Part shown: in pieces, positions 1-13,520 of the stretch
Position numbering within the stretch: the first letter of the stretch is position 1
Layout of the letters: every line of letters starts with the position of its first letter
Assembly: GCA_965261545.1 (NCBI GenBank)
Contig: CBDHDF010000010.1
Location: 352,001 to 416,000, forward strand
DNA from: Bdellovibrionales bacterium
GTDB taxonomy: Bacteria; Bdellovibrionota; Bdellovibrionia; Bdellovibrionales; UBA1609
DNA: 64,000 nt
Reading direction: 5' to 3'
Position numbers and translations under genes: made by a program
Notes under the pieces: model-generated
Seen by the model: the letters and a program-made list of their open reading frames with translations, nothing else
Told to the model about the DNA's origin: nothing
The model's database searches: none

Positions 1-1186
1 TTTGTTCTGCATTTAATTCAGGTTTTTTATTTTTGTCGTCAGCCATCTTTACATATTTCTTATAACCTTTATTGGAAACAAAAGTACTAGACTGAACACC
101 TTTAGAAGATAGTTTTCCTTCGATCTTTTCAAGAAGGGATTCTCTAGATTTTTTATCTCTCTCTGCTCTTTTCCTAGACCAAGTCACAATACATCTATGC
201 CCCCCATGGTCTGTTTCGTAAACAGCAAGCTCATTCTCATATACCCAGCTAAAACGATTTAAATCATAGACCTCTTGTTTCTTTTCTTTTTTTAAAGATC
301 CAAGCTTCATACCAACAATAAACTCGCTTTGATCCTCACTGAGTTTGTCAGTATTAGCCTTTGATAAAAGCCCCCTATCAGCCACAAAAATGAAACGGCG
401 TACATTAAACTTTTTTCTCATTTTATCAACAATATCTGAAAGCGTCTTGCCTTCAAAAGTATTACCAGGGAAAACCTCAAAACCTAAAGGGATGCCATCC
501 CGATTCACCAACAAACCAAAGACAACTTGGGTGCAGTCTGATCGTCTCTCTTTACTATAGCCAAATTGACGAAGTTTCCCTAAGTCTGTTCTTGTACTCT
601 CGAAGCGTAAGGTTGTTAAATCATACAACACAATGTCTACTTGGAAATTAAATAAATCTCGCCCCACCCAATAAAGCGAGTTCTCTATTTCATCCTTATG
701 GGAGGCAAGTAAGTCCATAGACCGATAAATATGCTGGAGACTCAAATCACCCTTAATCATGTCTGGGTAAAAAGATTTTTGCCAATACTCAAAAACCTTT
801 AACTTGGAACTAGGAGCAATAAATCGGCTGGCAACTAAGGTAAAAATCACCTTACATAAATCAAATTGAACTTTCTCATGAGAATCTTTTATGTCTTTGA
901 GGGTCTTATTGATACCCAGTTGATCAAACAACTTTTGTAAAATCAGCAAGGGACCCAAAATGAAAGTCTCTTCGATGTAAAGCTCCTTAGCCAATTGACT
1001 CACAGTGAGAAGCTCTCGGTGGCGGGATACGGCCTGCGCCAAACTATTAATCTTATCCTCTCCTCCTTCTCCAGCCTTACCTAAGGACATGAGCATGCGT
1101 TTTTTGGATTTGCCTTTTTCTCTGTAGGACTCCACAAGGTGGTAGTAGCACTGACCTTTTGAGTTTTTAGTCGTTTGGATGTACAT
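1..1186 (-). CDS. IS1634-family DDE transposase; N-terminus intact (MYIQTTKNSKGQCYYHLVESYR...), cut by the window edge
   Basis: Manual translation from ATG 1186. Same protein as ORF 9429..11039 (YDLTTLRFES, FVADRG motifs). Confidence 0.9.
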   Translation of the reverse strand, partial: MYIQTTKNSKGQCYYHLVESYREKGKSKKRMLMSLGKAGEGGEDKINSLAQAVSRHRELLTVSQLAKELYIEETFILGPLLILQKLFDQLGINKTLKDIKDSHEKVQFDLCKVIFTLVASRFIAPSSKLKVFEYWQKSFYPDMIKGDLSLQHIYRSMDLLASHKDEIENSLYWVGRDLFNFQVDIVLYDLTTLRFESTRTDLGKLRQFGYSKERRSDCTQVVFGLLVNRDGIPLGFEVFPGNTFEGKTLSDIVDKMRKKFNVRRFIFVADRGLLSKANTDKLSEDQSEFIVGMKLGSLKKEKKQEVYDLNRFSWVYENELAVYETDHGGHRCIVTWSRKRAERDKKSRESLLEKIEGKLSSKGVQSSTFVSNKGYKKYVKMADDKNKKPELNAEQ

Positions 1187-1366
1187 GAGGATATTTTCTA
1201 CATATTTCTATGATATATCAATATTTAAAACGATAAAATCCTATTTTGTTTTCTACACTTTTTTTACGTCAATTTTAATTTTTCCAGCAGCTACCATTAT
1301 ATTTCAGTACAACCCCAATTTCTGGAAATTTCGCATTTTAACGCAGATGCTGCTGTCAAACTCGGG
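1..1366 (-). mobile_element. IS1634-family element A, copy 1 (runs off the left edge)
   Basis: Near-identical to 9905-11055 plus 12961-13175. Terminal IR ...acgcagatgctgctgtcaaactcggg ends at 1366. Confidence 0.9.
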
Positions 1367-1854
1367 ATTGAGCTTCCTTGAAAAATACTCTTTTCTCTCA
1401 CAGATTTCGTATTTTTTTCTACTGGCAACAAAAGGTCTTGCCAAATGAGAGAATGTAAGCAACGCGGCACTCCTATCTTGAAAATAAGTTTTTCCAAGAT
1501 TACGGTGTCCACACTAGCGAAATAAGATTTAACATCTGTCTTAAAAACGTAGGAGTAATTTGTCCTTTGGTGGTACAGTTGGCGGATCGCATAGTTCCGC
1601 CCTTTGCCTGCAGTAGACACATAGTTGTGGGCCACCCAATTCTTTGTTGCTACCATATCTCTCAAATAAGATGACAAGCAAAAATCTACAAATCGATCTT
1701 CCCATTCTTTGTAATAAGTTATTAGTTTACCGCCAATGAATTGGGTTTTTCTTTCCGAAAAAAAATAGGATTGATTTTTAATTTGATGGTTGAGTTCGCT
1801 CACAAATTCTTCTTTACGTTGGGCCCAAGACAAAAGGCGAGAACTGTGTTTGGA
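1367..1854 (-). pseudogene. Reverse transcriptase, middle fragment (approx. motifs 1-4)
   Basis: EDRFVD, GKGRNYAI, VFKTDVKSYFASVD (first catalytic Asp) and IFQGSSI motifs. Cut by IS ends at 1366 and 1855. Confidence 0.85.
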
Positions 1855-3362
1855 CAGCAATTCCCGTCGAAAAATAGTTTAGGCCACAGTAGTGGCTTCC
1901 AAAAGATTCGCCTCAAAAAGAGTTCGTAGACTTTTGCCTAAGTATCTGTTTGAATATTTGTTGTTGCACATCAGACCAAGGAGGGTTCGTCATGTCGCAT
2001 CAACATTTTAGAAAAGGTCTATCCGCTTCAGGAATGTATTCCCTGTTACACAGTAAATCTCTTGCAGTTCCAGATATAAGATCGCAGCGTCCCCATAGGA
2101 TTCCTCTGAGCGATGCCATTATGTCATCTGTGGCAATGTTTGCCTTGAAAGATCCATCCATGCTTCAGTTTTGTGATCGTGTCCATGACCCAGTGGCAAA
2201 AAACAACCTACACCATTTGTTTCAAATAGGCCAAATTCCTAGTGATACGGCTATGCGAGAGATTTTAGATCCTGTTCCAACCCGTGAGTTTCAAAATTTT
2301 TTTAAATCTTTGTTTACCGTAGCTCAAAGAGGGAAGGTTTTGGAGGGTTACCCATATTTGGGTGGAAAATATCTTCTCAGCATTGATGGAACAGGTGCCT
2401 TTAGCTCCTCGACTATTCATTGTGAGAATTGTTGTATAAAGAATCATCGTGATGAGACGAAGACCTACTATCATCAAATGTTAGCAGGAGTGATTGTTCA
2501 CCCCGATAAGAAACAGGTTATACCTATTGCTCCAGAGCCCATTTCAAACACAGATGGATCGAGCAAAAATGATTGTGAGCGTAATGCAGCCAAACGACTC
2601 CTTGAAGATTTTCGCAGGGAACACCCTCACCTTCCAGTGATTGTTATTGAGGATGGATTGGCTTCCAATGCTCCTCACATCACTCTTCTTAACGAATTAA
2701 AATTAAGTTATATTTTAGGCTGTAAGATGGGGGACCACAAAGTTTTATTTGAGTTTGTAAATGGAGCAGATAGCTTAGGAACAGTTTCTCACTTCACCGT
2801 GGTAGAGAATGGAGTGACACATGAATTTCGATTCATAAATGATGTTTCACTCAATGATTCAAATCCTGATTGTCGAGTGAATTTTATTGAATACAAAGAA
2901 ACGAAAGCAAACGGTAAGGTTCAGCACTTTAGCTGGGTGACTGACATTGAGATCAACGAAGACAACATAATGCAAATAATGAGGGGGGGAAGAGCACGCT
3001 GGAAGATAGAAAATGAAACATTTAATACGTTAAAGAATTTGGGTTACAACTTTGAGCACAATTTTGGCCACGGCAAGCAAAATTTGTCTAACAATTTAGC
3101 CGTGATTATGATGCTGGTATTTTTAGTGGACCAACTTCAACATTTGGCCTGTAAATTGTTTCAAAAGGCGGTAGAAAAAGAGAGGAGACTATCTTATCTA
3201 TGGGATCATATGAGGGGGTATTTCCATACCCTATACTTTAAAAATTGGCAGGAACTCCTCGCCATAATGGCTTATGGGATTAAGCCTATTGAGGTGGACC
3301 CCAATGTCAGACTGAAAAACTTGATTTTTAAGCTACACCACAGCGCACAAAGAAGCCCCGTG

Positions 3363-4211
3363 TTAATGTGTTAAATCCACCTCTCCCATATGCACCTGAT
3401 AAGGGGTGCAATCCTGAAGAGACTGGTGTGGCCTTTTATTATTATAAAAATTAAAATACGTTTTAAAACCTTTGTTGGCTTGAACCATTGATTTGTCTTG
3501 ATAGCCTTTCAAGTAAACCTCTTCGTACTTAACAGACCGCCAAAGCCGCTCGATCATGATGTTGTCTAAACACCTGCCTTTGCCGTCCATACTGATCGAG
3601 ATTCCATGATTTTTCAATAATTTTGTGAAAACCTCAGAAGTGAATTGGCACCCTTGATCAGTATTGACGATATCAGGGCAACCAAATGTTTCTATGGCTT
3701 CCTCAAAGACTTCTAAACAAAAAGTTGTCTCAAGGCTATTAGAAAGTCTCCAAGACAGAACAAATCGGCTAAACCAATCTATCACAGCTACCAAGTAAGC
3801 AAAGCCACCAGACAACCTTATAAAAGTAATATCAGTAGCCCACACTTGGTTGGGGAAGCAGATATTAAGCCCCTTAAGTAGGTAGGGATAAACCTTATGC
3901 TGATGGTTTCGCTGACTGGTGTTTGGACCTGGGAAGATAGCGAAAAGACACATCTTTTCCATGAGCCGCTGAATCCTCTTGCGGTTGACCCCATGGCCAT
4001 TAAGTCTTAAGTGAGCTGCCATTTTACGGCTCCCATAAAAAGGGGTCTCCAAGTACTGTTTGTCAATTAAACTCATCAGTTTTAAGTTGTAGGCACTCTC
4101 AGGTATGGGCTTGTAGTACAAGGCTCCCTTAGAGAGTCCTAGCAACTCACATTGGCGAGTGACACAAATATTTGGATGTTTCCAATTGATAGCGGCTTTT
4201 TTCTCAGGCAT
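3363..4211 (-). CDS. IS3 OrfB (rve-type DDE domain)
   Basis: [32 protein letters not shown] motifs. Confidence 0.95.
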
Positions 4212-4494
4212 TGAAGCTCTCAGATTTTTTTTTTAACCAATCATTTTCAACCTTTAACTGCCCTATTTGCCGATACAATTCATCAATGGTTTTTCTTTGT
4301 TCTTCTACCTCGTTGTTGTCCTTTTTTTTGCTCGCTAAGGCCTTAGGAATGGCTTCAATAGCTTGCTTCTTCCAATCTTGGATTTGGATGCGGTGAACTC
4401 CATGCTTGGAGGCCAACTCTGCCATTGTGTCAGTCTCACGAATGGCGTCAAGTGCGACTCTGGCCTTAAATTGTGCGCTGTGTTTCTTTCTCAT
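4204..4494 (-). CDS. IS3 OrfA (HTH); A10 slippery run at 4225-4234 for -1 frameshift into OrfB
   Basis: [15 protein letters not shown]...[18 protein letters not shown]. Overlaps orfB in the -1 frame. Confidence 0.92.
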
Positions 4495-4789
4495 TATCCC
4501 CTCCTATGAGGGGCTTTTTACCCGCTGCGGTGTAACTTAGCAACCAGTCTGTTTTTGGGGTCCACTATATATTGCTGCCTCAGATGTTTTCGACACATCA
4601 TGAGCAGCCATTTTTCTCAAAGTGCCCCAAAGAGTTTAACGTATTTGCCCTAAACTAAAGTCTGGACATTCGCCTCTAAATGGCGAAGACGGGGAGGTTT
4701 ACCTTATTCGATGCAGTGCAATTCTCACACTGAGATTTGGAGGAATTTCAATGTTTTTTCAAGCTCGGCGGGAATTTCTGGTGTTTGGA

Positions 4790-4837
4790 CTTGTGATTAG
4801 AAATGAACGCTGCTAACTTATCTAGTGAGGTTATCAT
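4790..4837 (-). pseudogene. Reverse transcriptase true N-terminus (MITSLDKLAAFISNHK)
   Basis: Joins in frame to SKHSSRLLSW... at 1854 once the IS and one TSD copy are removed. Confidence 0.8.
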
Positions 4838-4892
4838 GATCGATCTATGGCCTCTTGGGAAGGGGGATGCCCCCTTGGGTTACACTAGGGCT

Positions 4893-6309
4893 CAATGCCG
4901 TTTCCTTAAGCCACCACACCCCTCTGCCTCTGCGTTAAGCTATTTCTTTTAAAAGAACTCCCAGCCCTTTTGATAGACCTTTCATAGCTTCTTTTGAAGT
5001 GCCTCCTCTTCTCCATTGAAATCTTCATCAGCAACTTTATCTGCTTCCTAAATTTCTGATAGAGCCCCGCAACAAAAAGAGGGATGCTATCCATTATGAA
5101 ATCAAGAATCAGTTTAAAGTTAGGTTTTTTGTAGTCATTTTTTACCAACTGATTCACACTGTCTTCATCCTCATTTATGCTCATTTGAATCTTTGTATAA
5201 TTGAAGAGCCAAAAATAAGAATACAGCTCTTGCAATATTCCATTAAGGCTTGTTGAGTGCCACTGCTCCATTTTCATTGTCGATGTAAAATCACGAAATG
5301 TCGTTTCTATTTCCCAACGACGAGAGTAAAGAGCAACCATATCCTTCTTGTCCAAGGAGCCATGCGGAAGATTAGTGGCCAAAACAGAGAACTCCCCAGT
5401 CTTTGGGTTTTTATACTTATAGAGATGAATGACCACCCCCTCAATAACCATTCGTGAATACCAACCTGGGCCATTAAATAAATTTACAATGGGGATAAAA
5501 GTAGAGCCTCGCTTACAACGCGCAATAAAGAAGTTACTGGCTTGAGCATGGGCCTTAATAATCTCTGTAGATAAATAAAGCCTATCGTAGAGAGTTATGC
5601 TATTACTCTCAAAACTACCTATCATTTGAATAGCATTGGCGATTTCGTTCAGAGCGGGAGAATAGCAAAGATTCTTTGTCACACCCGATAAAACGTCATA
5701 AGCATGAGATAGATACATACGTAAGAAATGAGTTTCCATCTCATTTGGGCAAGGGTACCCACAATAACCCTCCTTTAAAAGATCTTTAGAGCGAGGAAGT
5801 GCTAATTGGTCGCCATCTATGGCATAGATATAAAAACCATGAAACGTTTTTCTCAATGGTTCGTAGTCTGTAATCAAAGATTCAAAGATATCTTTGAAAA
5901 ATAGGTAAGAAATACTTTGACGTATCTTGCTGAGACTGCTTTTGACTGGCATGAGAAGCAGGTCACCAAAATGAGTCCATACCGTCTTAAGAGCGATTTG
6001 GTAGCCTTCGTAATTTGTTCCGGAAATAAGATAGATAATGGTAAAAAAGAAAATTTGAGGATTAAATTTTCGATTCCTTTTTTGTTTTTCTGGATCGACA
6101 AGGTGCTCTGACTTGAAGGAAGAATCAAGTTTTGGTAGAATAAAATGGTCATCTGTGACGCGAACTCGTCATTTGGGGGCTTTCGAGATCAATATTGGAT
6201 TGCATGTGACTTACTCCTTGGTTGAGGGTTGGGTGTAAAATAAAACAAGTCTTATTCTTGTCGATTTATCTAATAATTTCAAGAGATTTTTCTTAAGGAA
6301 ACGGCATTG
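4893..6309 (-). mobile_element. IS4-family element, 1417 bp
   Basis: Perfect 18-bp IR caatgccgtttccttaag. 10-bp TSD cactagggct at 4883-4892 and 6310-6319. Confidence 0.92.
4906..6205 (-). CDS. IS4-family transposase; 5' end out of frame with the SD-preceded ATG at 6205
   Basis: AIDGD, LYDRLY, YSRRWEIETTFR (YREK-like) motifs. Main frame is open upstream of M5952 to about 6170. Confidence 0.85.
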
Positions 6310-6401
6310 CACTAGGGCTATTTAAATTGGAGAAGTGATCTCGTTAACATTAACATTTGAATCCCCTGTGTGTGGCTGAGCCACAAAGGCAGACACGCCC
6401 G

Positions 6402-7346
6402 TTAAGGCGATGTCGCGGACGGTATACAGACCCCGCGGAGTTCATCAAATCGCGACGCTACTGTCGTTACACTTATCGCGACCGTACTATGACGCCCGTC
6501 GATTGAATTGTGGACGTAATGGCGATTGATTACTTCCACTTTAGTTCGCGCCATCGATCGTCAAGTGAACATAATTCGGTAGTGAGACCCGTGTTCGACG
6601 CTCGCAATGTACCCGGTCTTGCAACTTATTACCGGCCATTCAGGGAAATCCCCGATCATCATCCCCTTCTTGATCACGACCGGCCCTGCGGTCGGGCCCT
6701 TTACGGCCGCCATCTCAATCATCGGCACCGCCTTTACGGCAGCCACCAGTTGACCGCAACTCACTATCGGAGCATCCGCACGCCCGGGAGCTGCAGCGTC
6801 GGCAGGACTCGTCGAAAGTAGTATCCGCGCTTGCGGCGGACGGAACGGTCTGACGTAAGACCCATCCACAAATGCGACCGACAAATCACCCTGAAACTCT
6901 CCCGTTGTCCCTGTGGGACGAATATTCTTGACCTGCACAGACTGAACTGTAAGCCTGTTGTACACAGCGGTGCCCGCTGCAGCAATGATGTTATGGGATC
7001 CTGTAAAATCACAACCTGTGCGTATGCTCCCGAGGTTGATGTCACTGGGCGTCTCATCAGGTCTCGTGTCGATGGTAAATGGACCTATGGTCTGCTTGAG
7101 ACCATCTTCTGGACTCGAATTTATGCTATCCTTAAAGTGGCAGTTACAGGTCTCAGTATTTTTTAGGGCTTGGAGGATTAAGTAGTGGTTACTTGCGGCT
7201 GCGAGCTGTTCTTTGATGGATGTGAGTTCCGTATGTTGAAAAGAAAACATTTGAATGAGAGTTGTCAGCAGCATCCCAGTAATGACAGTTGCTACCAGAG
7301 TGGCAGCCAGAGAAAAACCTCTATTATTAATATTAATTAGATTCAC
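6402..7346 (-). pseudogene. Type IV pilin/pseudopilin-like protein with one internal TGA (6561-6563)
   Basis: NNRG|FSL plus hydrophobic helix and CxC motif. Frame stays open 52 codons past the TGA to TAA at 6402. Paralog of 60172..61131. Confidence 0.65.
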
Positions 7347-7390
7347 TTAACACCTCTCAACCAAAAAAATATACCATACTAATAGAATAA

Positions 7391-9033
7391 CAGAAATTCC
7401 CGCCGAGCTTGAAAAAACATTGAAATTCCTCCAAATCTCAGTGTGAGAATTGCACTGCATCGAATAAGGTAAACCTCCCCGTCTTCGCCATTTAGAGGCG
7501 AATGTCCAGACTTTAGTTTAGGGCAAATACGTTAAACTCTTTGGGGCACTTTGAGAAAAATGGCTGCTCATGATGTGTCGAAAACATCTGAGGCAGCAAT
7601 AGGCTTAATCCCATAAGCCATTATGGCGAGGAGTTCCTGCCAATTTTTAAAGTATAGGGTATGGAAATACCCCCTCATATGATCCCATAGATAAGATAGT
7701 CTCCTCTCTTTTTCTACCGCCTTTTGAAACAATTTACAGGCCAAATGTTGAAGTTGGTCCACTAAAAATACCAGCATCATAATCACGGCTAAATTGTTAC
7801 ACAAATTTTGCTTGCCGTGGCCAAAATTGTGCTCAAAGTTGTAACCCAAATTCTTTAACGTATTAAATGTTTCATTTTCTATCTTCCAGCGTGCTCTTCC
7901 CCCCCTCATTATTTGCATTATGTTGTCTTCGTTGATCTCAATGTCAGTCACCCAGCTAAAGTGCTGAACCTTACCGTTTGCTTTCGTTTCTTTGTATTCA
8001 ATAAAATTCACTCGACAATCAGGATTTGAATCATTGAGTGAAACATCATTTATGAATCGAAATTCATGTGTCACTCCATTCTCTACCACGGTGAAGTGAG
8101 AAACTGTTCCTAAGCTATCTGCTCCATTTACAAACTCAAATAAAACTTTGTGGTCCCCCATCTTACAGCCTAAAATATAACTTAGTTTTAATTCGTTAAG
8201 AAGAGTGATGTGAGGAGCATTGGAAGCCAATCCATCCTCAATAACAATCACTGGAAGGTGAGGGTGTTCCCTGCGAAAATCTTCAAGGAGTCGTTTGGCT
8301 GCATTACGCTCACAATCATTTTTGCTCGATCCATCTGTGTTTGAAATGGGCTCTGGAGCAATAGGTATAACCTGTTTCTTATCGGGGTGAACAATCACTC
8401 CTGCTAACATTTGATGATAGTAGGTCTTCGTCTCATCACGATGATTCTTTATACAACAATTCTCACAATGAATAGTCGAGGAGCTAAAGGCACCTGTTCC
8501 ATCAATGCTGAGAAGATATTTTCCACCCAAATATGGGTAACCCTCCAAAACCTTCCCTCTTTGAGCTACGGTAAACAAAGATTTAAAAAAATTTTGAAAC
8601 TCACGGGTTGGAACAGGATCTAAAATCTCTCGCATAGCCGTATCACTAGGAATTTGGCCTATTTGAAACAAATGGTGTAGGTTGTTTTTTGCCACTGGGT
8701 CATGGACACGATCACAAAACTGAAGCATGGATGGATCTTTCAAGGCAAACATTGCCACAGATGACATAATGGCATCGCTCAGAGGAATCCTATGGGGACG
8801 CTGCGATCTTATATCTGGAACTGCAAGAGATTTACTGTGTAACAGGGAATACATTCCTGAAGCGGATAGACCTTTTCTAAAATGTTGATGCGACATGACG
8901 AACCCTCCTTGGTCTGATGTGCAACAACAAATATTCAAACAGATACTTAGGCAAAAGTCTACGAACTCTTTTTGAGGCGAATCTTTTGGAAGCCACTACT
9001 GTGGCCTAAACTATTTTTCGACGGGAATTGCTG
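7391..9033 (-). mobile_element. 1643-bp DDE IS, copy 2 (intact)
   Basis: Inverted near-identical copy of 1855-4780 without IS3. 9-bp TSD atagaataa at 7382-7390 and 9034-9042. Confidence 0.93.
7568..8896 (-). CDS. DDE transposase (intact)
   Basis: ORF 7568..8938; likely start is the SD-preceded ATG at 8896. Confidence 0.92.
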   Translation of the reverse strand: MSHQHFRKGLSASGMYSLLHSKSLAVPDIRSQRPHRIPLSDAIMSSVAMFALKDPSMLQFCDRVHDPVAKNNLHHLFQIGQIPSDTAMREILDPVPTREFQNFFKSLFTVAQRGKVLEGYPYLGGKYLLSIDGTGAFSSSTIHCENCCIKNHRDETKTYYHQMLAGVIVHPDKKQVIPIAPEPISNTDGSSKNDCERNAAKRLLEDFRREHPHLPVIVIEDGLASNAPHITLLNELKLSYILGCKMGDHKVLFEFVNGADSLGTVSHFTVVENGVTHEFRFINDVSLNDSNPDCRVNFIEYKETKANGKVQHFSWVTDIEINEDNIMQIMRGGRARWKIENETFNTLKNLGYNFEHNFGHGKQNLCNNLAVIMMLVFLVDQLQHLACKLFQKAVEKERRLSYLWDHMRGYFHTLYFKNWQELLAIMAYGIKPIAASDVFDTS

Positions 9034-9066
9034 ATAGAATAACACTATCGTCATTGAAAGAACAAG

Positions 9067-9357
9067 ATTTACAAAAAAAAATCCATAGGTGTTTCTGATT
9101 GATACACAATTTTTTTATGAATCTATGATTTATGAGTTGATTTATGATTGCCTCGTGATTGCATTTGGTAAAAACGAGCAGCGTACTCTCCACTAAGGGC
9201 CATAAGCTCTTCGTGTTGCCCTTGTGTTCTCAAAGATGGCGCACATCTTTGAGAACAAGAATAGGAGCGTCCTTATAAGTGGATTTGCCACTGCCGCTGG
9301 ATCCAATAATGGCCAACATTTCCCCACGGCGAATGGAGAAATTGAGACCGCTGAGAA
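9067..9357. repeat. 291-bp direct repeat, left copy (long TSD of IS1634 element A)
   Basis: Matches 13176-13466 and abuts the IS terminus. Confidence 0.92.
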
Positions 9358-9428
9358 CCCGAGTTTGACAGCAGCATCTGCGTCAAACGAATGATATTAA
9401 AGGATTAACGCATATAGTTGTATTTTGT

Positions 9429-11055
9429 TTATCCACACTTGTGGGCATTAAGGATTCTGGGAGGGATGGGGACGCCTGCGGCTTTAAATAAGGAGTTGGC
9501 ATTGCCAGTGATATCTGTGCGGGTCCAAATGACTTGATCACGAATTTTAACAGGGATAGCCCTAACTTCCTTGAGTTCCCTCATGGCCTCTACAACAGTT
9601 AAAGGTCGCTCTTTAACATGACCAATGCCTATGGCTGGGCTTTTTAGGTTCATCTTCTTATCTCTTAAACATTTTGTAAGGTGGGCCTCACAAAGATAAG
9701 TTAAAAAGCATAGAGTTAAATGTCCAATAATCCTCTGGTCTGTCCAATGGAAAACAGGACGTGTTTTCAAAGTCCCTTTTAACTCACCAAAAGCATCTTC
9801 AATTTTCCACAATTCTTTGTAGTTGATAATAATCTCATCTGCCGTCAAGTCTTTGACATTTGTAAGGACGGCAAAAAAACCATCAATTTTTTCATCTAAT
9901 TCTATTTGTTCTGCATTTAATTCAGGTTTTTTATTTTTGTCGTCAGCCATCTTTACATATTTCTTATAACCTTTATTGGAAACAAAAGTACTAGACTGAA
10001 CACCTTTAGAAGATAGTTTTCCTTCGATCTTTTCAAGAAGGGATTCTCTAGATTTTTTATCCCTCTCTGCTCTTTTCCTAGACCAAGTCACAATACATCT
10101 ATGCCCCCCATGGTCTGTTTCGTAAACAGCAAGCTCATTCTCATATACCCAGCTAAAACGATTTAAATCATAGACCTCTTGTTTCTTTTCTTTTTTTAAA
10201 GATCCAAGCTTCATACCAACAATAAACTCGCTTTGATCCTCACTGAGTTTGTCAGTATTAGCCTTTGATAAAAGCCCCCTATCAGCCACAAAAATGAAAC
10301 GGCGTACATTAAACTTTTTTCTCATTTTATCAACAATATCTGAAAGCGTCTTGCCTTCAAAAGTATTACCAGGGAAAACCTCAAAACCTAAAGGGATGCC
10401 ATCCCGATTCACCAACAAACCAAAGACAACTTGGGTGCAGTCTGATCGTCTCTCTTTACTATAGCCAAATTGACGAAGTTTCCCTAAGTCTGTTCTTGTA
10501 CTCTCGAAGCGTAAGGTTGTTAAATCATACAACACAATGTCTACTTGGAAATTAAATAAATCTCGCCCCACCCAATAAAGCGAGTTCTCTATTTCATCCT
10601 TATGGGAGGCAAGTAAGTCCATAGACCGATAAATATGCTGGAGACTCAAATCACCCTTAATCATGTCTGGGTAAAAAGATTTTTGCCAATACTCAAAAAC
10701 CTTTAACTTGGAACTAGGAGCAATAAATCGGATGGCAACTAAGGTAAAAATCACCTTACATAAATCAAATTGAACTTTCTCATGAGAATCTTTTATGTCT
10801 TTGAGGGTCTTATTGATACCCAGTTGATCAAACAACTTTTGTAAAATCAGCAAGGGACCCAAAATGAAAGTCTCTTCGATGTAAAGCTCCTTAGCCAATT
10901 GACTCACAGTGAGAAGCTCTCGGTGGCGGGATACGGCCTGCGCCAAACTATTAATCTTATCCTCTCCTCCTTCTCCAGCCTTACCTAAGGACATGAGCAT
11001 GCGTTTTTTGGATTTGCCTTTTTCTCTGTAGGACTCCACAAGGTGGTAGTAGCAC
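9429..11055 (-). pseudogene. IS1634-family transposase lacking its first ~12 codons (left at 12961-12995)
   Basis: Comparison with copy 1; YKELWKIEDAF motif. Confidence 0.88.
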
Positions 11056-12954
11056 CCTGAAATCCCTAAAAGTTGTAACTAGGTTTAATGTATTGCGTTA
11101 ACTTTCCTCTCTTCCTATGGAATTGGCTGCTGTCAACGGTTTGAGAGGTTTAATAGTATTAATATATTTAATATGATTCATAAGAATTTGCTGCGAAAGG
11201 TCCTCTTCGTCCCCATTGGATAGATGAGGCATAGTGGTAGCCACAGCCACCGTCACATTTGAAACAGATAAAAAACATCATTTTGTCTTGGGAAGCCCAT
11301 CTATTTGGAAGGCTGAAAAAATATCCTTTTGTTTTTTAGACAGCTCTCCAAGCATCAGATCACCTGTAGCTAATTCATAAAATTTTAATCGGTCCATCAT
11401 TTTGTAAATTTCTATTTTAGACATTTTTTTATATAACTTCTTATCTTTCATAACAGTATCAATATGTGAAATTAAAATTAAAGAGAGAAAATTAATAAAG
11501 ATGCTTCCCCTCATATTCATGAGAGAATGAACTCGACTTCTCCTTCCATTAATATCATGCTTGAATGAGAAAAATACTTTCTCAATGATATCTTTGTTTC
11601 GATATAAACTCAATATATTTGTTTTCTTTAAATCATGACTATTTGTAATTAATATCATAATACCCAGCGTAGAAGATTCTTCATTAATATTTTCTTCATT
11701 TAAAGAAATCTTAAATGGAGTGCAATCAGAGATATTGAGAAACCTTTTTTTATTTCCTAAAGTTTCTTTCATATAGGAACTAGCTTGTTCTTCTGATTTC
11801 AAATCTTTCTCAAGAAAGAGTTTCATAAAATCAAGCAACTCTTTCATTAACACAGATTCCTCATAAACCCTTCTTTCTTTGTCTAAGAAAATATGAGCCG
11901 TACAATCAAATCCTCCGATTTTTATTGATTCTTTGCAATGCGAATAAATTTCCTCATTAAAAGTAAAAGAGCATGATGGAGATTTTATTTTCTCATTTAA
12001 AGCCACAGCAAGCTCTCTTGAGAGTTTTGTTCTAAAACTCATGGGTATCAAATACTTCAATTCCTTACGATGCAGTCCCTTAATATTTTCTACACTAGAA
12101 AAACCCTTATCCATAACTAAACAATCTAAATCTAATTTATAACTTGTTATGATCTCAATAATATTCGATAAAGTTTTGACATCCGGTATACTTCCAGGAT
12201 AGATTCTGTACGCTATAGGCGTATGAGTTTTATTGTCTTCAGATTTCCTACTTATCAGACCTAAGTTTATTTGTTCGAGATTCTCTCCATCTCTGTTGTA
12301 ACCTTTCTCTAAAAATTCATTATTCATAGAGTAGGAAGAAAAGGATGTGATGTCAAACATTACCGTACCAGAACCCTTCACTTGATTTATCCATTCGCTA
12401 AAGAAAGATTCTATCTTTTTTTGATCTCTCCCAAGATCACATAAGAGATTGCTTATTTTTTGTGACGACATAAAATTTTTCTTTGAAACATAAGCTTCTT
12501 GACACCACATATCGTAAAGATAAAAGGGCTCTCTTTTGATTATTTTAAAAAAAGCTAAATGCAAATAATGTTCGTAATTATCTGGATAAATTTTAGACAA
12601 TGTTTTTAGAAGATTTAGTTGTTCGCATATTTTCTCTAAGAAAAATAAGGCTCCCACATTATAGGAGCCTATGGGAATCTTTTTTCTTTTGGTCTTAATT
12701 TGACCTGTAAACTCATCCTTTCTTCCAAGGTAGATGCGTTTTTGCCTGGCCTGCTTTTTTTCCTTGTCCCAAAAGCTTTCAACTTTATAGACATAGGTTT
12801 TTCCCTTATTTTTTTGCTCAAAAGTGTATGACATCGTTAATATTGTAACTATGCTTTTGAAGAGATGACAATCTCTTAATCAAAGTGAAGGCCTTCTCAG
12901 ACAATAATCAGGACTTAAGTCCTACACCTAGTTACAACTTTTAGGGATTTCAGG
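11056..12954 (-). mobile_element. IS1634-family element B, 1899 bp
   Basis: IR cctgaaatccctaaaagttgtaactagg. 6-bp TSD tagcac at 11050-11055 and 12955-12960. Confidence 0.92.
11278..12834 (-). CDS. IS1634-family transposase (518 aa)
   Basis: FDITSFSSYS, GYNRDGENLEQINLG, VMDKGF, YRNKDIIEKVF motifs. Confidence 0.9.
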   Translation of the reverse strand: MSYTFEQKNKGKTYVYKVESFWDKEKKQARQKRIYLGRKDEFTGQIKTKRKKIPIGSYNVGALFFLEKICEQLNLLKTLSKIYPDNYEHYLHLAFFKIIKREPFYLYDMWCQEAYVSKKNFMSSQKISNLLCDLGRDQKKIESFFSEWINQVKGSGTVMFDITSFSSYSMNNEFLEKGYNRDGENLEQINLGLISRKSEDNKTHTPIAYRIYPGSIPDVKTLSNIIEIITSYKLDLDCLVMDKGFSSVENIKGLHRKELKYLIPMSFRTKLSRELAVALNEKIKSPSCSFTFNEEIYSHCKESIKIGGFDCTAHIFLDKERRVYEESVLMKELLDFMKLFLEKDLKSEEQASSYMKETLGNKKRFLNISDCTPFKISLNEENINEESSTLGIMILITNSHDLKKTNILSLYRNKDIIEKVFFSFKHDINGRRSRVHSLMNMRGSIFINFLSLILISHIDTVMKDKKLYKKMSKIEIYKMMDRLKFYELATGDLMLGELSKKQKDIFSAFQIDGLPKTK

Positions 12955-13175
12955 TAGCACTGACCTTTTGAGTTTTTAGTCGTTTGGATGTACATGAGGA
13001 TATTTTCTACATATTTCTATGATATATCAATATTTAAAACGATAAAATCCTATTTTGTTTTCTACACTTTTTTTACGTCAATTTTAATTTTTCCAGCAGC
13101 TACCATTATATTTCAGTACAACCCCAATTTCTGGAAATTTCGCATTTTAACGCAGATGCTGCTGTCAAACTCGGG

Positions 13176-13466
13176 ATTTACAAAAAAAAATCCATAGGTG
13201 TTTCTGATTGATACACAATTTTTTTATGAATCTATGATTTATGAGTTGATTTATGATTGCCTCGTGATTGCATTTGGTAAAAACGAGCAGCGTACTCTCC
13301 ACTAAGGGCCATAAGCTCTTCGTGTTGCCCTTGTGTTCTCAAAGATGGCGCACATCTTTGAGAACAAGAATAGGAGCGTCCTTATAAGTGGATTTGCCAC
13401 TGCCGCTGGATCCAATAATGGCCAACATTTCCCCACGGCGAATGGAGAAATTGAGACCGCTGAGAA
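13176..13466. repeat. 291-bp direct repeat, right copy
   Basis: Matches 9067-9357. Confidence 0.92.
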
Positions 13467-13520
13467 CTTCCCTTCCAAATATTTTTCATAGCTCTTACAA
13501 ACAGCGGTTTGTTCCATCAC
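13339..13520 (-). pseudogene. ABC ATPase (LolD-like) N-terminal fragment, frameshifted and truncated after Walker A
   Basis: VCKSY... then, in another frame, EVLSGLNFSIRRGEMLAIIGSSGSGKST. Confidence 0.75.

Follow-up and report, generated by a model that had tools for sequence, protein, structure and literature searches.

Reverse transcriptases (RTs) of the UG4 group, also listed as UG/Abi class 2, are described as small proteins of 278-347 aa (Simon & Zimmerly 2008, PMC2602772; Sharifi & Ye, PMC8934634; Mestre et al. 2022, PMC9226505). They are placed beside fimbrial genes and are not found to be enriched in defence islands (PMC9226505, PMC8934634), and one pair of UG4 sequences, more than 90% identical but without identity in the 3' flanks, is read as a sign of possible mobility (PMC2602772). 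In the literature searched, with most subscription papers outside its scope, we found no paper that proposes a diversification function for UG4. The present work concerns a UG4-like RT and the pilin-like gene beside it, in a 64,000-nt stretch of DNA from a Bdellovibrionales bacterium (the window, C10:352001-416000; C-numbers are contigs of that genome). The host genome, of 4.3 Mb, is riddled with insertion sequences (ISs), and the assembly searched consists of 11 contigs and is 96.8% complete.

The window contains a dead, IS-shattered copy of a two-gene cassette, in which a prepilin-like gene is followed by a 137-bp structured spacer and then by the UG4-like RT; the same cassette is intact on contig C11. 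The parts of the shattered copy, in window coordinates unless a contig is named, are as follows.

6402..7346, minus strand: prepilin-like surface gene, co-directional with the RT and upstream of it, with an in-frame TGA at codon 262.
6438..6725, minus strand: hypervariable pilin tip, with an unalignable core, a graded 5' edge and conserved last ~14 codons, in comparison with C11 and a third allele.
6320..6401, minus strand: the part of the spacer next to the pilin gene, which has predicted hairpins and differs little between the two cassettes.
4838..4892, minus strand: RT-proximal part of the spacer, 100% identical to C11, with a GC-rich hairpin that also precedes the RT paralog on C7.
4781..4837, minus strand: RT codons 1-19 (57 nt, including the target duplication copy 4781-4789 of 9 bp), with 0 mismatches to the intact C11 copy.
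1367..1845, minus strand: RT codons 20-178, up to the motif QGSS (479 nt, present in the list of open reading frames, ORFs), with 1 mismatch to the C11 copy.
C10:350954-351453, left of the window, minus strand: remainder of the RT, with the YVDD motif and the C-terminus, with 3 mismatches to C11.

The RT pieces of the window copy, which is IS debris, thus differ from the C11 twin (286 aa, C11:1009794-1010654) at four positions overall. An earlier note, made from the letters of the window, had called the RT hidden, a description that does not survive the intact twin in the same genome. Its reconstruction of the gene fared better. Removal of the IS together with one 9-bp duplicate does give the in-frame fusion of 178 codons (plus 2 nt), while excision of 1855-4780 alone keeps the frame and yields 181 codons, three of them duplicated. 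The cut by IS1634 is where the note placed it, after a sequence given as IFQGSSI, but the final I belongs to the IS1634 junction, and the native motif, in the intact C11 copy, reads FQGSSMSTFYAWLYL. The YxDD motif and the C-terminus had been predicted to lie beyond the left edge, and the YVDD continuation was indeed found there. The native leader, estimated at ~137 bp, measures 137 bp on C11 between the pilin stop and the RT start; in the window it is split by an IS4-family element.

On C11 the prepilin-like gene is an open ORF of 338 aa, on the same strand as the RT. Its matches to N_methyl (E=0.012) and ComGE (E=0.0015) are both below cut-off, and the pilin label is accordingly tentative. 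Over the RT and the flanks the cassettes share ~99% identity; the exception is the last ~350 nt of the pilin gene. From the start of the gene, the two alleles are near-identical for ~200 codons, then diverge gradually, become unalignable, and rejoin over the last ~14 codons and the spacer. The change extends to silent positions: between the window and C11, the first 200 codons have 1 difference at 104 four-fold degenerate sites, and the core blocks have 7 at 10 such sites. A third pilin allele (P0167, on an ENA contig) combines an N-terminal part of ~95% identity with an unrelated tip; its contig is equal in length to the one that carries an RT of 96% identity (P0003). Both tips were found in contigs of the public run (depth 3-7, one sample), and the tip difference is therefore not an assembly error. 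The single-sequence fold of the pilin was unusable (predicted local distance difference test score, pLDDT, 40.6), and a search of the Atlas with the pilin tip gave no match. The folded spacer hairpin aligns between C11 and C7 with a score of 82.5, against a shuffled maximum of 51; promoter and terminator scans gave chance-level results only. Fragments of the 5' end of an ABC-transporter gene and of an Rpn-like nuclease gene recur as repeats, duplicated together with the DNA downstream of the RT (L001:8634-13473, L002:10626-11500).

Examination of the intact RT with Pfam revealed RVT_1 only, with a catalytic YVDD and no extra domain. The AlphaFold model has a confident RT fold (pLDDT 90.6), with a template modelling (TM) score of about 0.8 to G2L4, group II and diversity-generating retroelement (DGR) RTs. 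Among the PADLOC models the best was RT_UG4 (3e-32, 110 bits, model positions 27-271 of 307); the runner-up, UG17, reached 8e-27, so the margin in favour of UG4 is modest, and UG18 scored 74 bits. The group II maturase model gave 68 bits against a cut-off of 300 and the Retron St85 model 35 bits against a cut-off of 235; Drt and retron models were far below their cut-offs, with weak matches to Drt3a and Drt2. The VTG motif of retron RTs is not present in the sequence, and the GxxxSQ-type motif of DGR RTs is replaced by QG. A leader of 137 bp is, moreover, too short for the RNA domains of a group II intron. In the 50 relatives scanned (46 from the 150 relatives listed and 4 from the nearest clade), the best model was UG4 in 34, UG18 in 4 and another in 4, while 8 had none at 1e-42.

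Phylogenetic placement was assessed in two trees, IQ-TREE quick (69 rows) and FastTree (58 rows), both without retron rows. The RT and five relatives of ~50% identity fall inside a 20-row branch (support 98/95 in the two trees), which is sister to core UG4 plus UG18 with weak support (83/81) and is not inside core UG4. All 46 UG4, UG18 and sister rows stand apart from the DGR and group II RTs (94/99); one of them, P0051, carries a UG18-like label in the trees, yet its best hidden Markov model (HMM) is UG4. Because the trees place it in the sister branch of UG4 and UG18, the RT is, judged from its sequence, a deep branch of the known and functionally unexplained UG4-like group rather than a core member. 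It lacks the C-terminal ~35 residues of UG4, the conserved RLYEQ helix and the hairpin motif encoded there, and the spacer does not contain the motif either. The earlier description of a compact, divergent, non-intron RT agrees with these data (286 aa, maturase score far from the cut-off, position outside the DGR and group II clades). Placement inside a standard group II clade, which the earlier note had named as a result that would speak against its view, was seen in neither tree. Its suggestion of an unclassified lineage is partly borne out: the branch is deep, separate and outside core UG4, but the best HMM is that of a named group.

The model matches bear on one alternative, namely that the RT is an anti-phage enzyme of the DRT/Abi-like kind which stands beside surface genes by chance. 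UG4 is listed among the DRT models in PADLOC, and the weak Drt3a and Drt2 matches point in the same direction; on the other side, no effector or defence neighbour occurs at the locus and PMC9226505 reports no defence enrichment for UG4. We regard this function as very improbable.

Close copies of the RT (query P0001) were sought in genome_contigs (30 pattern matches, 0 confirmed) and viral_contigs (3 matches, 0 confirmed), and none was found in 60 relatives and 400 same-phylum genomes. The 31 loci inspected are mostly of DGR type; one, L076, groups with UG4 in the trees. Within the genome itself, RT relics occur at four further places, one of them behind a broken pilin paralog and one behind the end of a Cys-rich ORF. 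A second RT paralog (60% aa identity) survives as fragments at C7:300418-304830, C7:108326-108397 and C2:273420-273500; the C7 paralog fragment keeps the spacer hairpin and has the Cys-rich ORF end upstream, beyond ISs. In addition, a 58-nt island at C10:963867-963924, in GC-rich surroundings, is 76% identical to the middle of the RT (E=8.5e-6). It lies behind the IS-broken pilin paralog C10:958768-959475, and its flanks are no longer RT-like.

The neighbours of relatives were inspected, as the earlier note had proposed. In 9 of 17 relative loci a gene convergent with the RT, for the most part of a secreted or surface type, adjoins the RT 3' end; 7 loci are too short to tell and 1 differs. These neighbours include Lcl_C, PEP-CTERM and collagen-repeat proteins. 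In Salmonella, 10 cassettes on 5 plasmids have the RT facing a convergent inverse autotransporter. Most pairs of these cassettes are 91-97% alike in their RT parts; the RT 3' part alone is retained in 6 of the 10, three of which share one boundary. Within families, the final 40-190 nt of the autotransporter gene are conserved; changes then saturate the adjoining 0.6-0.9 kb, four-fold sites included, before identity grades back to ~100% by 1.1-1.4 kb. The alignments are patchy and mosaic-like. In the fimbrial operons of E. coli, E. albertii and E. marmotae, the adhesin gene is co-directional and follows the RT; here identity breaks down within the signal peptide, 20-120 nt beyond the RT anchor, and is regained toward the C-terminus. 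In the loci so aligned, the variable zone of canonical UG4 loci abuts the RT 3' end, whichever end of the surface gene is found there. The Salmonella RT DNA had no match in 5,426 E. coli genomes, and the E. albertii RT had 8 matches in the E. coli genome search. What is new here is a positional rule that holds across species: hypervariable surface-gene DNA adjoins the UG4 RT 3' end, in both orientations and with silent sites included.

Near-identical plasmid loci resolve the position of the changes further. In one pair, 12 of 12 substitutions in 7,248 nt fall 113-310 nt after the RT stop; 3 of the 9 changed codons are silent, all by transversion. In a second pair, all three substitutions in 10,855 nt fall 126-199 nt after the RT stop. 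All 19 aligned loci (rows that were chosen by the motif) have a nucleotide-level hairpin motif close to the boundary, and the RLYEQ/3' hairpin motif is present in 26 of the 29 relative loci searched. Within the RLYEQ codons, an 11-nt hairpin motif shows almost no nucleotide variation between phyla, and a longer, variable hairpin comes after it (L024:8639-8700 and 25 other UG4-type loci).

We tentatively propose, with somewhat less than even confidence, that the RT is a self-templated diversifier of surface-protein tips that works without a template repeat. According to this proposal, the RT would copy the RNA of its own cassette, with a fixed structured element on the RT-proximal side of the surface gene as its start or end point. 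An error-rich complementary DNA (cDNA) of variable length would result and would return by recombination to its gene of origin or enter sister cassettes. As no constant template would restore the sequence, changes would build up at all four bases, and the expected outcome would be an abrupt boundary on the RT side, a saturated core and a gradient that fades with distance. A more general formulation would make the UG4-type RTs a second class of diversity generator without a template repeat, which starts at a fixed cis element, reverse-transcribes RNA made from the adjacent surface gene itself and writes the error-rich cDNA back, so that all four bases are mutated over up to ~1 kb; the present lineage would be a rearranged variant, with the RT downstream of its target, and might act in trans on paralogous pilin tips. 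This wider claim we consider rather unlikely.

The chief competing explanation makes the RT a passenger of a mobile surface-gene cassette, or gives it some other role there: the tips would be varied by arms-race selection and by recombination among old alleles, and gene conversion would keep the flanks alike. Such variation is familiar from intimins, fimbrial adhesins and pilins. This explanation also stays short of an even chance, and stands nearly level with the self-templated diversifier. Several observations favour it and weigh against a diversifying RT. Two sets of loci, a paralogous pilin pair and the E. albertii operons with a decayed RT, had been chosen as negative controls, and both proved variable. 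The pilin pair has no adjacent RT gene and lies in a 6.6-kb duplication (C5:19013-25600 versus C10:658402-665052), in which 41 of 49 substitutions are found within ~430 of 6,656 nt, at the tip. In the pilin genes themselves (C5:21370-22566 and C10:660815-662020; L121, L122), the changes form four C-terminal patches with in-frame indels, and the C10 copy has a 2-bp deletion near its start. The changed codons are 32 nonsynonymous to 1 synonymous, with codon positions 15/15/2, and the pair ranks first of 79 clustered pairs (10,724 repeat pairs scanned). We found no donor nearby for these tips. With nonsynonymous changes exceeding synonymous ones 32:1 and third positions avoided, the pattern looks more like the work of arms-race selection than of random mutagenesis. 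The C11 RT may act on these tips in trans. A candidate remnant of an RT start behind the C5 paralog has a score that was reached by 7 of 300 and 245 of 300 shuffles.

In the E. albertii operons with a decayed RT, the adhesin is still variable, though less so (61 differences in one 500-nt bin), and the major fimbrial subunit, far from any RT, cannot be aligned. In the fimbrial operons on E. albertii phage-plasmids, a decayed vestige of the UG4 3' end precedes the adhesin (L124-L126:7090-7420). Of the six near-identical comparisons, the four other than the two pairs described above comprise three without any difference and one in which just 1 of 5 substitutions falls within the zone. As kin, the plasmid loci do not count as independent cases. 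The variable zones are also receptor-binding ends, where diversifying selection is expected. No base is preferred among the polarised changes (A 0.19, C 0.23, G 0.16, T 0.16), and the mosaic-like Salmonella alignments suit recombination as well. The geometry and the 3' motif deviate at the present locus: the variable DNA precedes the RT, the DNA downstream of the RT is 99% identical, and a covariance model of the UG4 3' element (4 pairs) had no match in the cassette (best E=1.3). Finally, the public run contigs, at the depth and from the single sample given above, yielded no further tip alleles.

The passenger explanation nevertheless leaves four matters unaccounted for. Unrelated surface genes have UG4-type RTs at their variable end, in either orientation; silent-site change starts within signal peptides; silent transversions occur in otherwise identical plasmids; and the 3' motif is conserved at the nucleotide level.

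A further possibility is that the RT moves tips between cassettes without mutating them, either by retro-gene-conversion or by retro-mobility of the RT end into surface genes. Such transfer would suit the several cassettes per replicon, six of the ten Salmonella cassettes having the RT 3' part only, as well as the near-identical RT remnants that stand before different convergent genes (L045 versus L047), the RT relics at four further places of the genome, and the UG4 pair read as possibly mobile in PMC2602772. However, neither a donor nor a template repeat for either tip was found in the 11-contig assembly, and the graded edges and scattered single changes of the near-identical pairs are not clean swaps. 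We consider such tip transfer improbable.

Another idea is that the RT belongs to a classical DGR whose template repeat (TR) is missing from the assembly. The genome does code for a canonical DGR of its own (C4:57213-60573, L120), which comprises a target, a helper ORF, an Avd-like gene, an RT and a 128-bp TR (C4:60446-60573), with at least six adenine-specific variable repeats (VRs) on C4, C7, C11 and C2; the avoidance of third codon positions in the C5/C10 pair could also be taken to suit a DGR. Conversely, the C4 TR is unrelated to the pilin tips, no Avd-like gene neighbours the present RT, and the latter is outside the DGR clade in both trees and carries QG in place of the GxxxSQ-type motif. 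In the C5/C10 pair, A is involved in 15 of 32 changes, as opposed to 82 of 125 in the DGR control, and many adenines are invariant. A hidden-template DGR is accordingly given only a slight chance. Adenine-specific mutagenesis of the tips was rejected, the in-genome DGR control being adenine-specific and the tips not. A second copy of the C4 DGR RT, frameshifted, is located at the contig edge (C4:1-1500, L119).

The elements that broke the window copy of the cassette are listed below.

1..1366, minus strand, running off the left window edge (full span C10:351454-353366): IS1634-family element (NCBIfam IS1634, 1.8e-114 for a sister copy).
1367..1541: long target duplication of IS1634, 175 bp of the RT, identical to C10:351279-351453.
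1855..4780: composite insertion inside the RT, made of a 1.64-kb multicopy IS and a nested IS3-family element.
From 1950, plus strand: transposase ORF of the 1.64-kb IS, within the composite insertion.
About 3292-4569: nested IS3-family element (IS3 match 3e-73).
4893..6309, minus strand: IS4-family element that splits the spacer (NCBIfam IS4, 7.5e-35), with a 10-bp duplication at 4883-4892 / 6310-6319.

The composite insertion is bounded by a 9-bp target duplication (1846-1854 = 4781-4789). A second copy of the 1.64-kb IS is found at 7386-9033 (inverted repeats I1/I2), with many more copies genome-wide. Long, variable target repeats of IS1634 have already been reported (PMC2266710); among the 28 IS1634 copies of this genome, 19 have target duplications of 8-409 bp and 9 have none. 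Another copy in the window, at 9358-13175, is flanked by a duplication of ~290 bp (9066-9357 / 13175-13467). Elsewhere, one copy of a 2.15-kb multicopy IS (C2:358292-360451) departs from every one of its sister copies at ~35 positions within a ~400-nt patch. The genome also contains three clusters of prepilin-like genes (C7:320173-326800, C7:426916-433300 and C2:618953-638800), with long glycine-rich repeats and a conserved C-terminal domain, which resemble adhesin or tail-fibre proteins.

UG4 RTs have been known since 2008, and their loose association with surface genes here becomes a rule of position, in which hypervariable DNA abuts the RT. The present genome offers an intact cassette and, as a positive control, a DGR of its own. 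Should the RT indeed cause the variation, it would represent a new route to the targeted evolution of adhesins and pili; if it does not, the window copy would be the IS debris of a known orphan family.

Like the described UG4 RTs, the present RT has UG4 as its best HMM, is small (286 aa), lacks an extra domain and adjoins a surface or pilus gene, and its near-identical duplicates have one flank that does not match. Unlike them, it belongs to a sister branch, scores 110 bits as compared to 300-450 for core UG4, and is devoid of the C-terminal ~35 aa and of the conserved 3' nucleotide motif; a type IV prepilin-like gene stands upstream of it, where the described UG4 RTs have a fimbrial or invasin gene at their 3' end. 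With UG18 it shares the 46-row superclade (94/99) and a similar size, but the UG18 match is of 74 bits only and UG18 forms a separate, well-supported clade. As in group II introns, the RT fold and a QG in motif 4 are present, whereas the maturase or thumb extension is not; the leader is of 137 bp, the maturase score is 68 versus 300 bits, and the clade is a separate one. As in DGRs, the RT stands beside a surface gene with a hypervariable C-terminal region, set between conserved DNA and hairpins, and some neighbours of its relatives carry the Lcl_C domain. It differs from DGRs in that neither a template repeat nor Avd was found, in the lack of adenine specificity, in its position outside the DGR clade, and in a variable zone that extends over 0.35-1.3 kb with a gradient.

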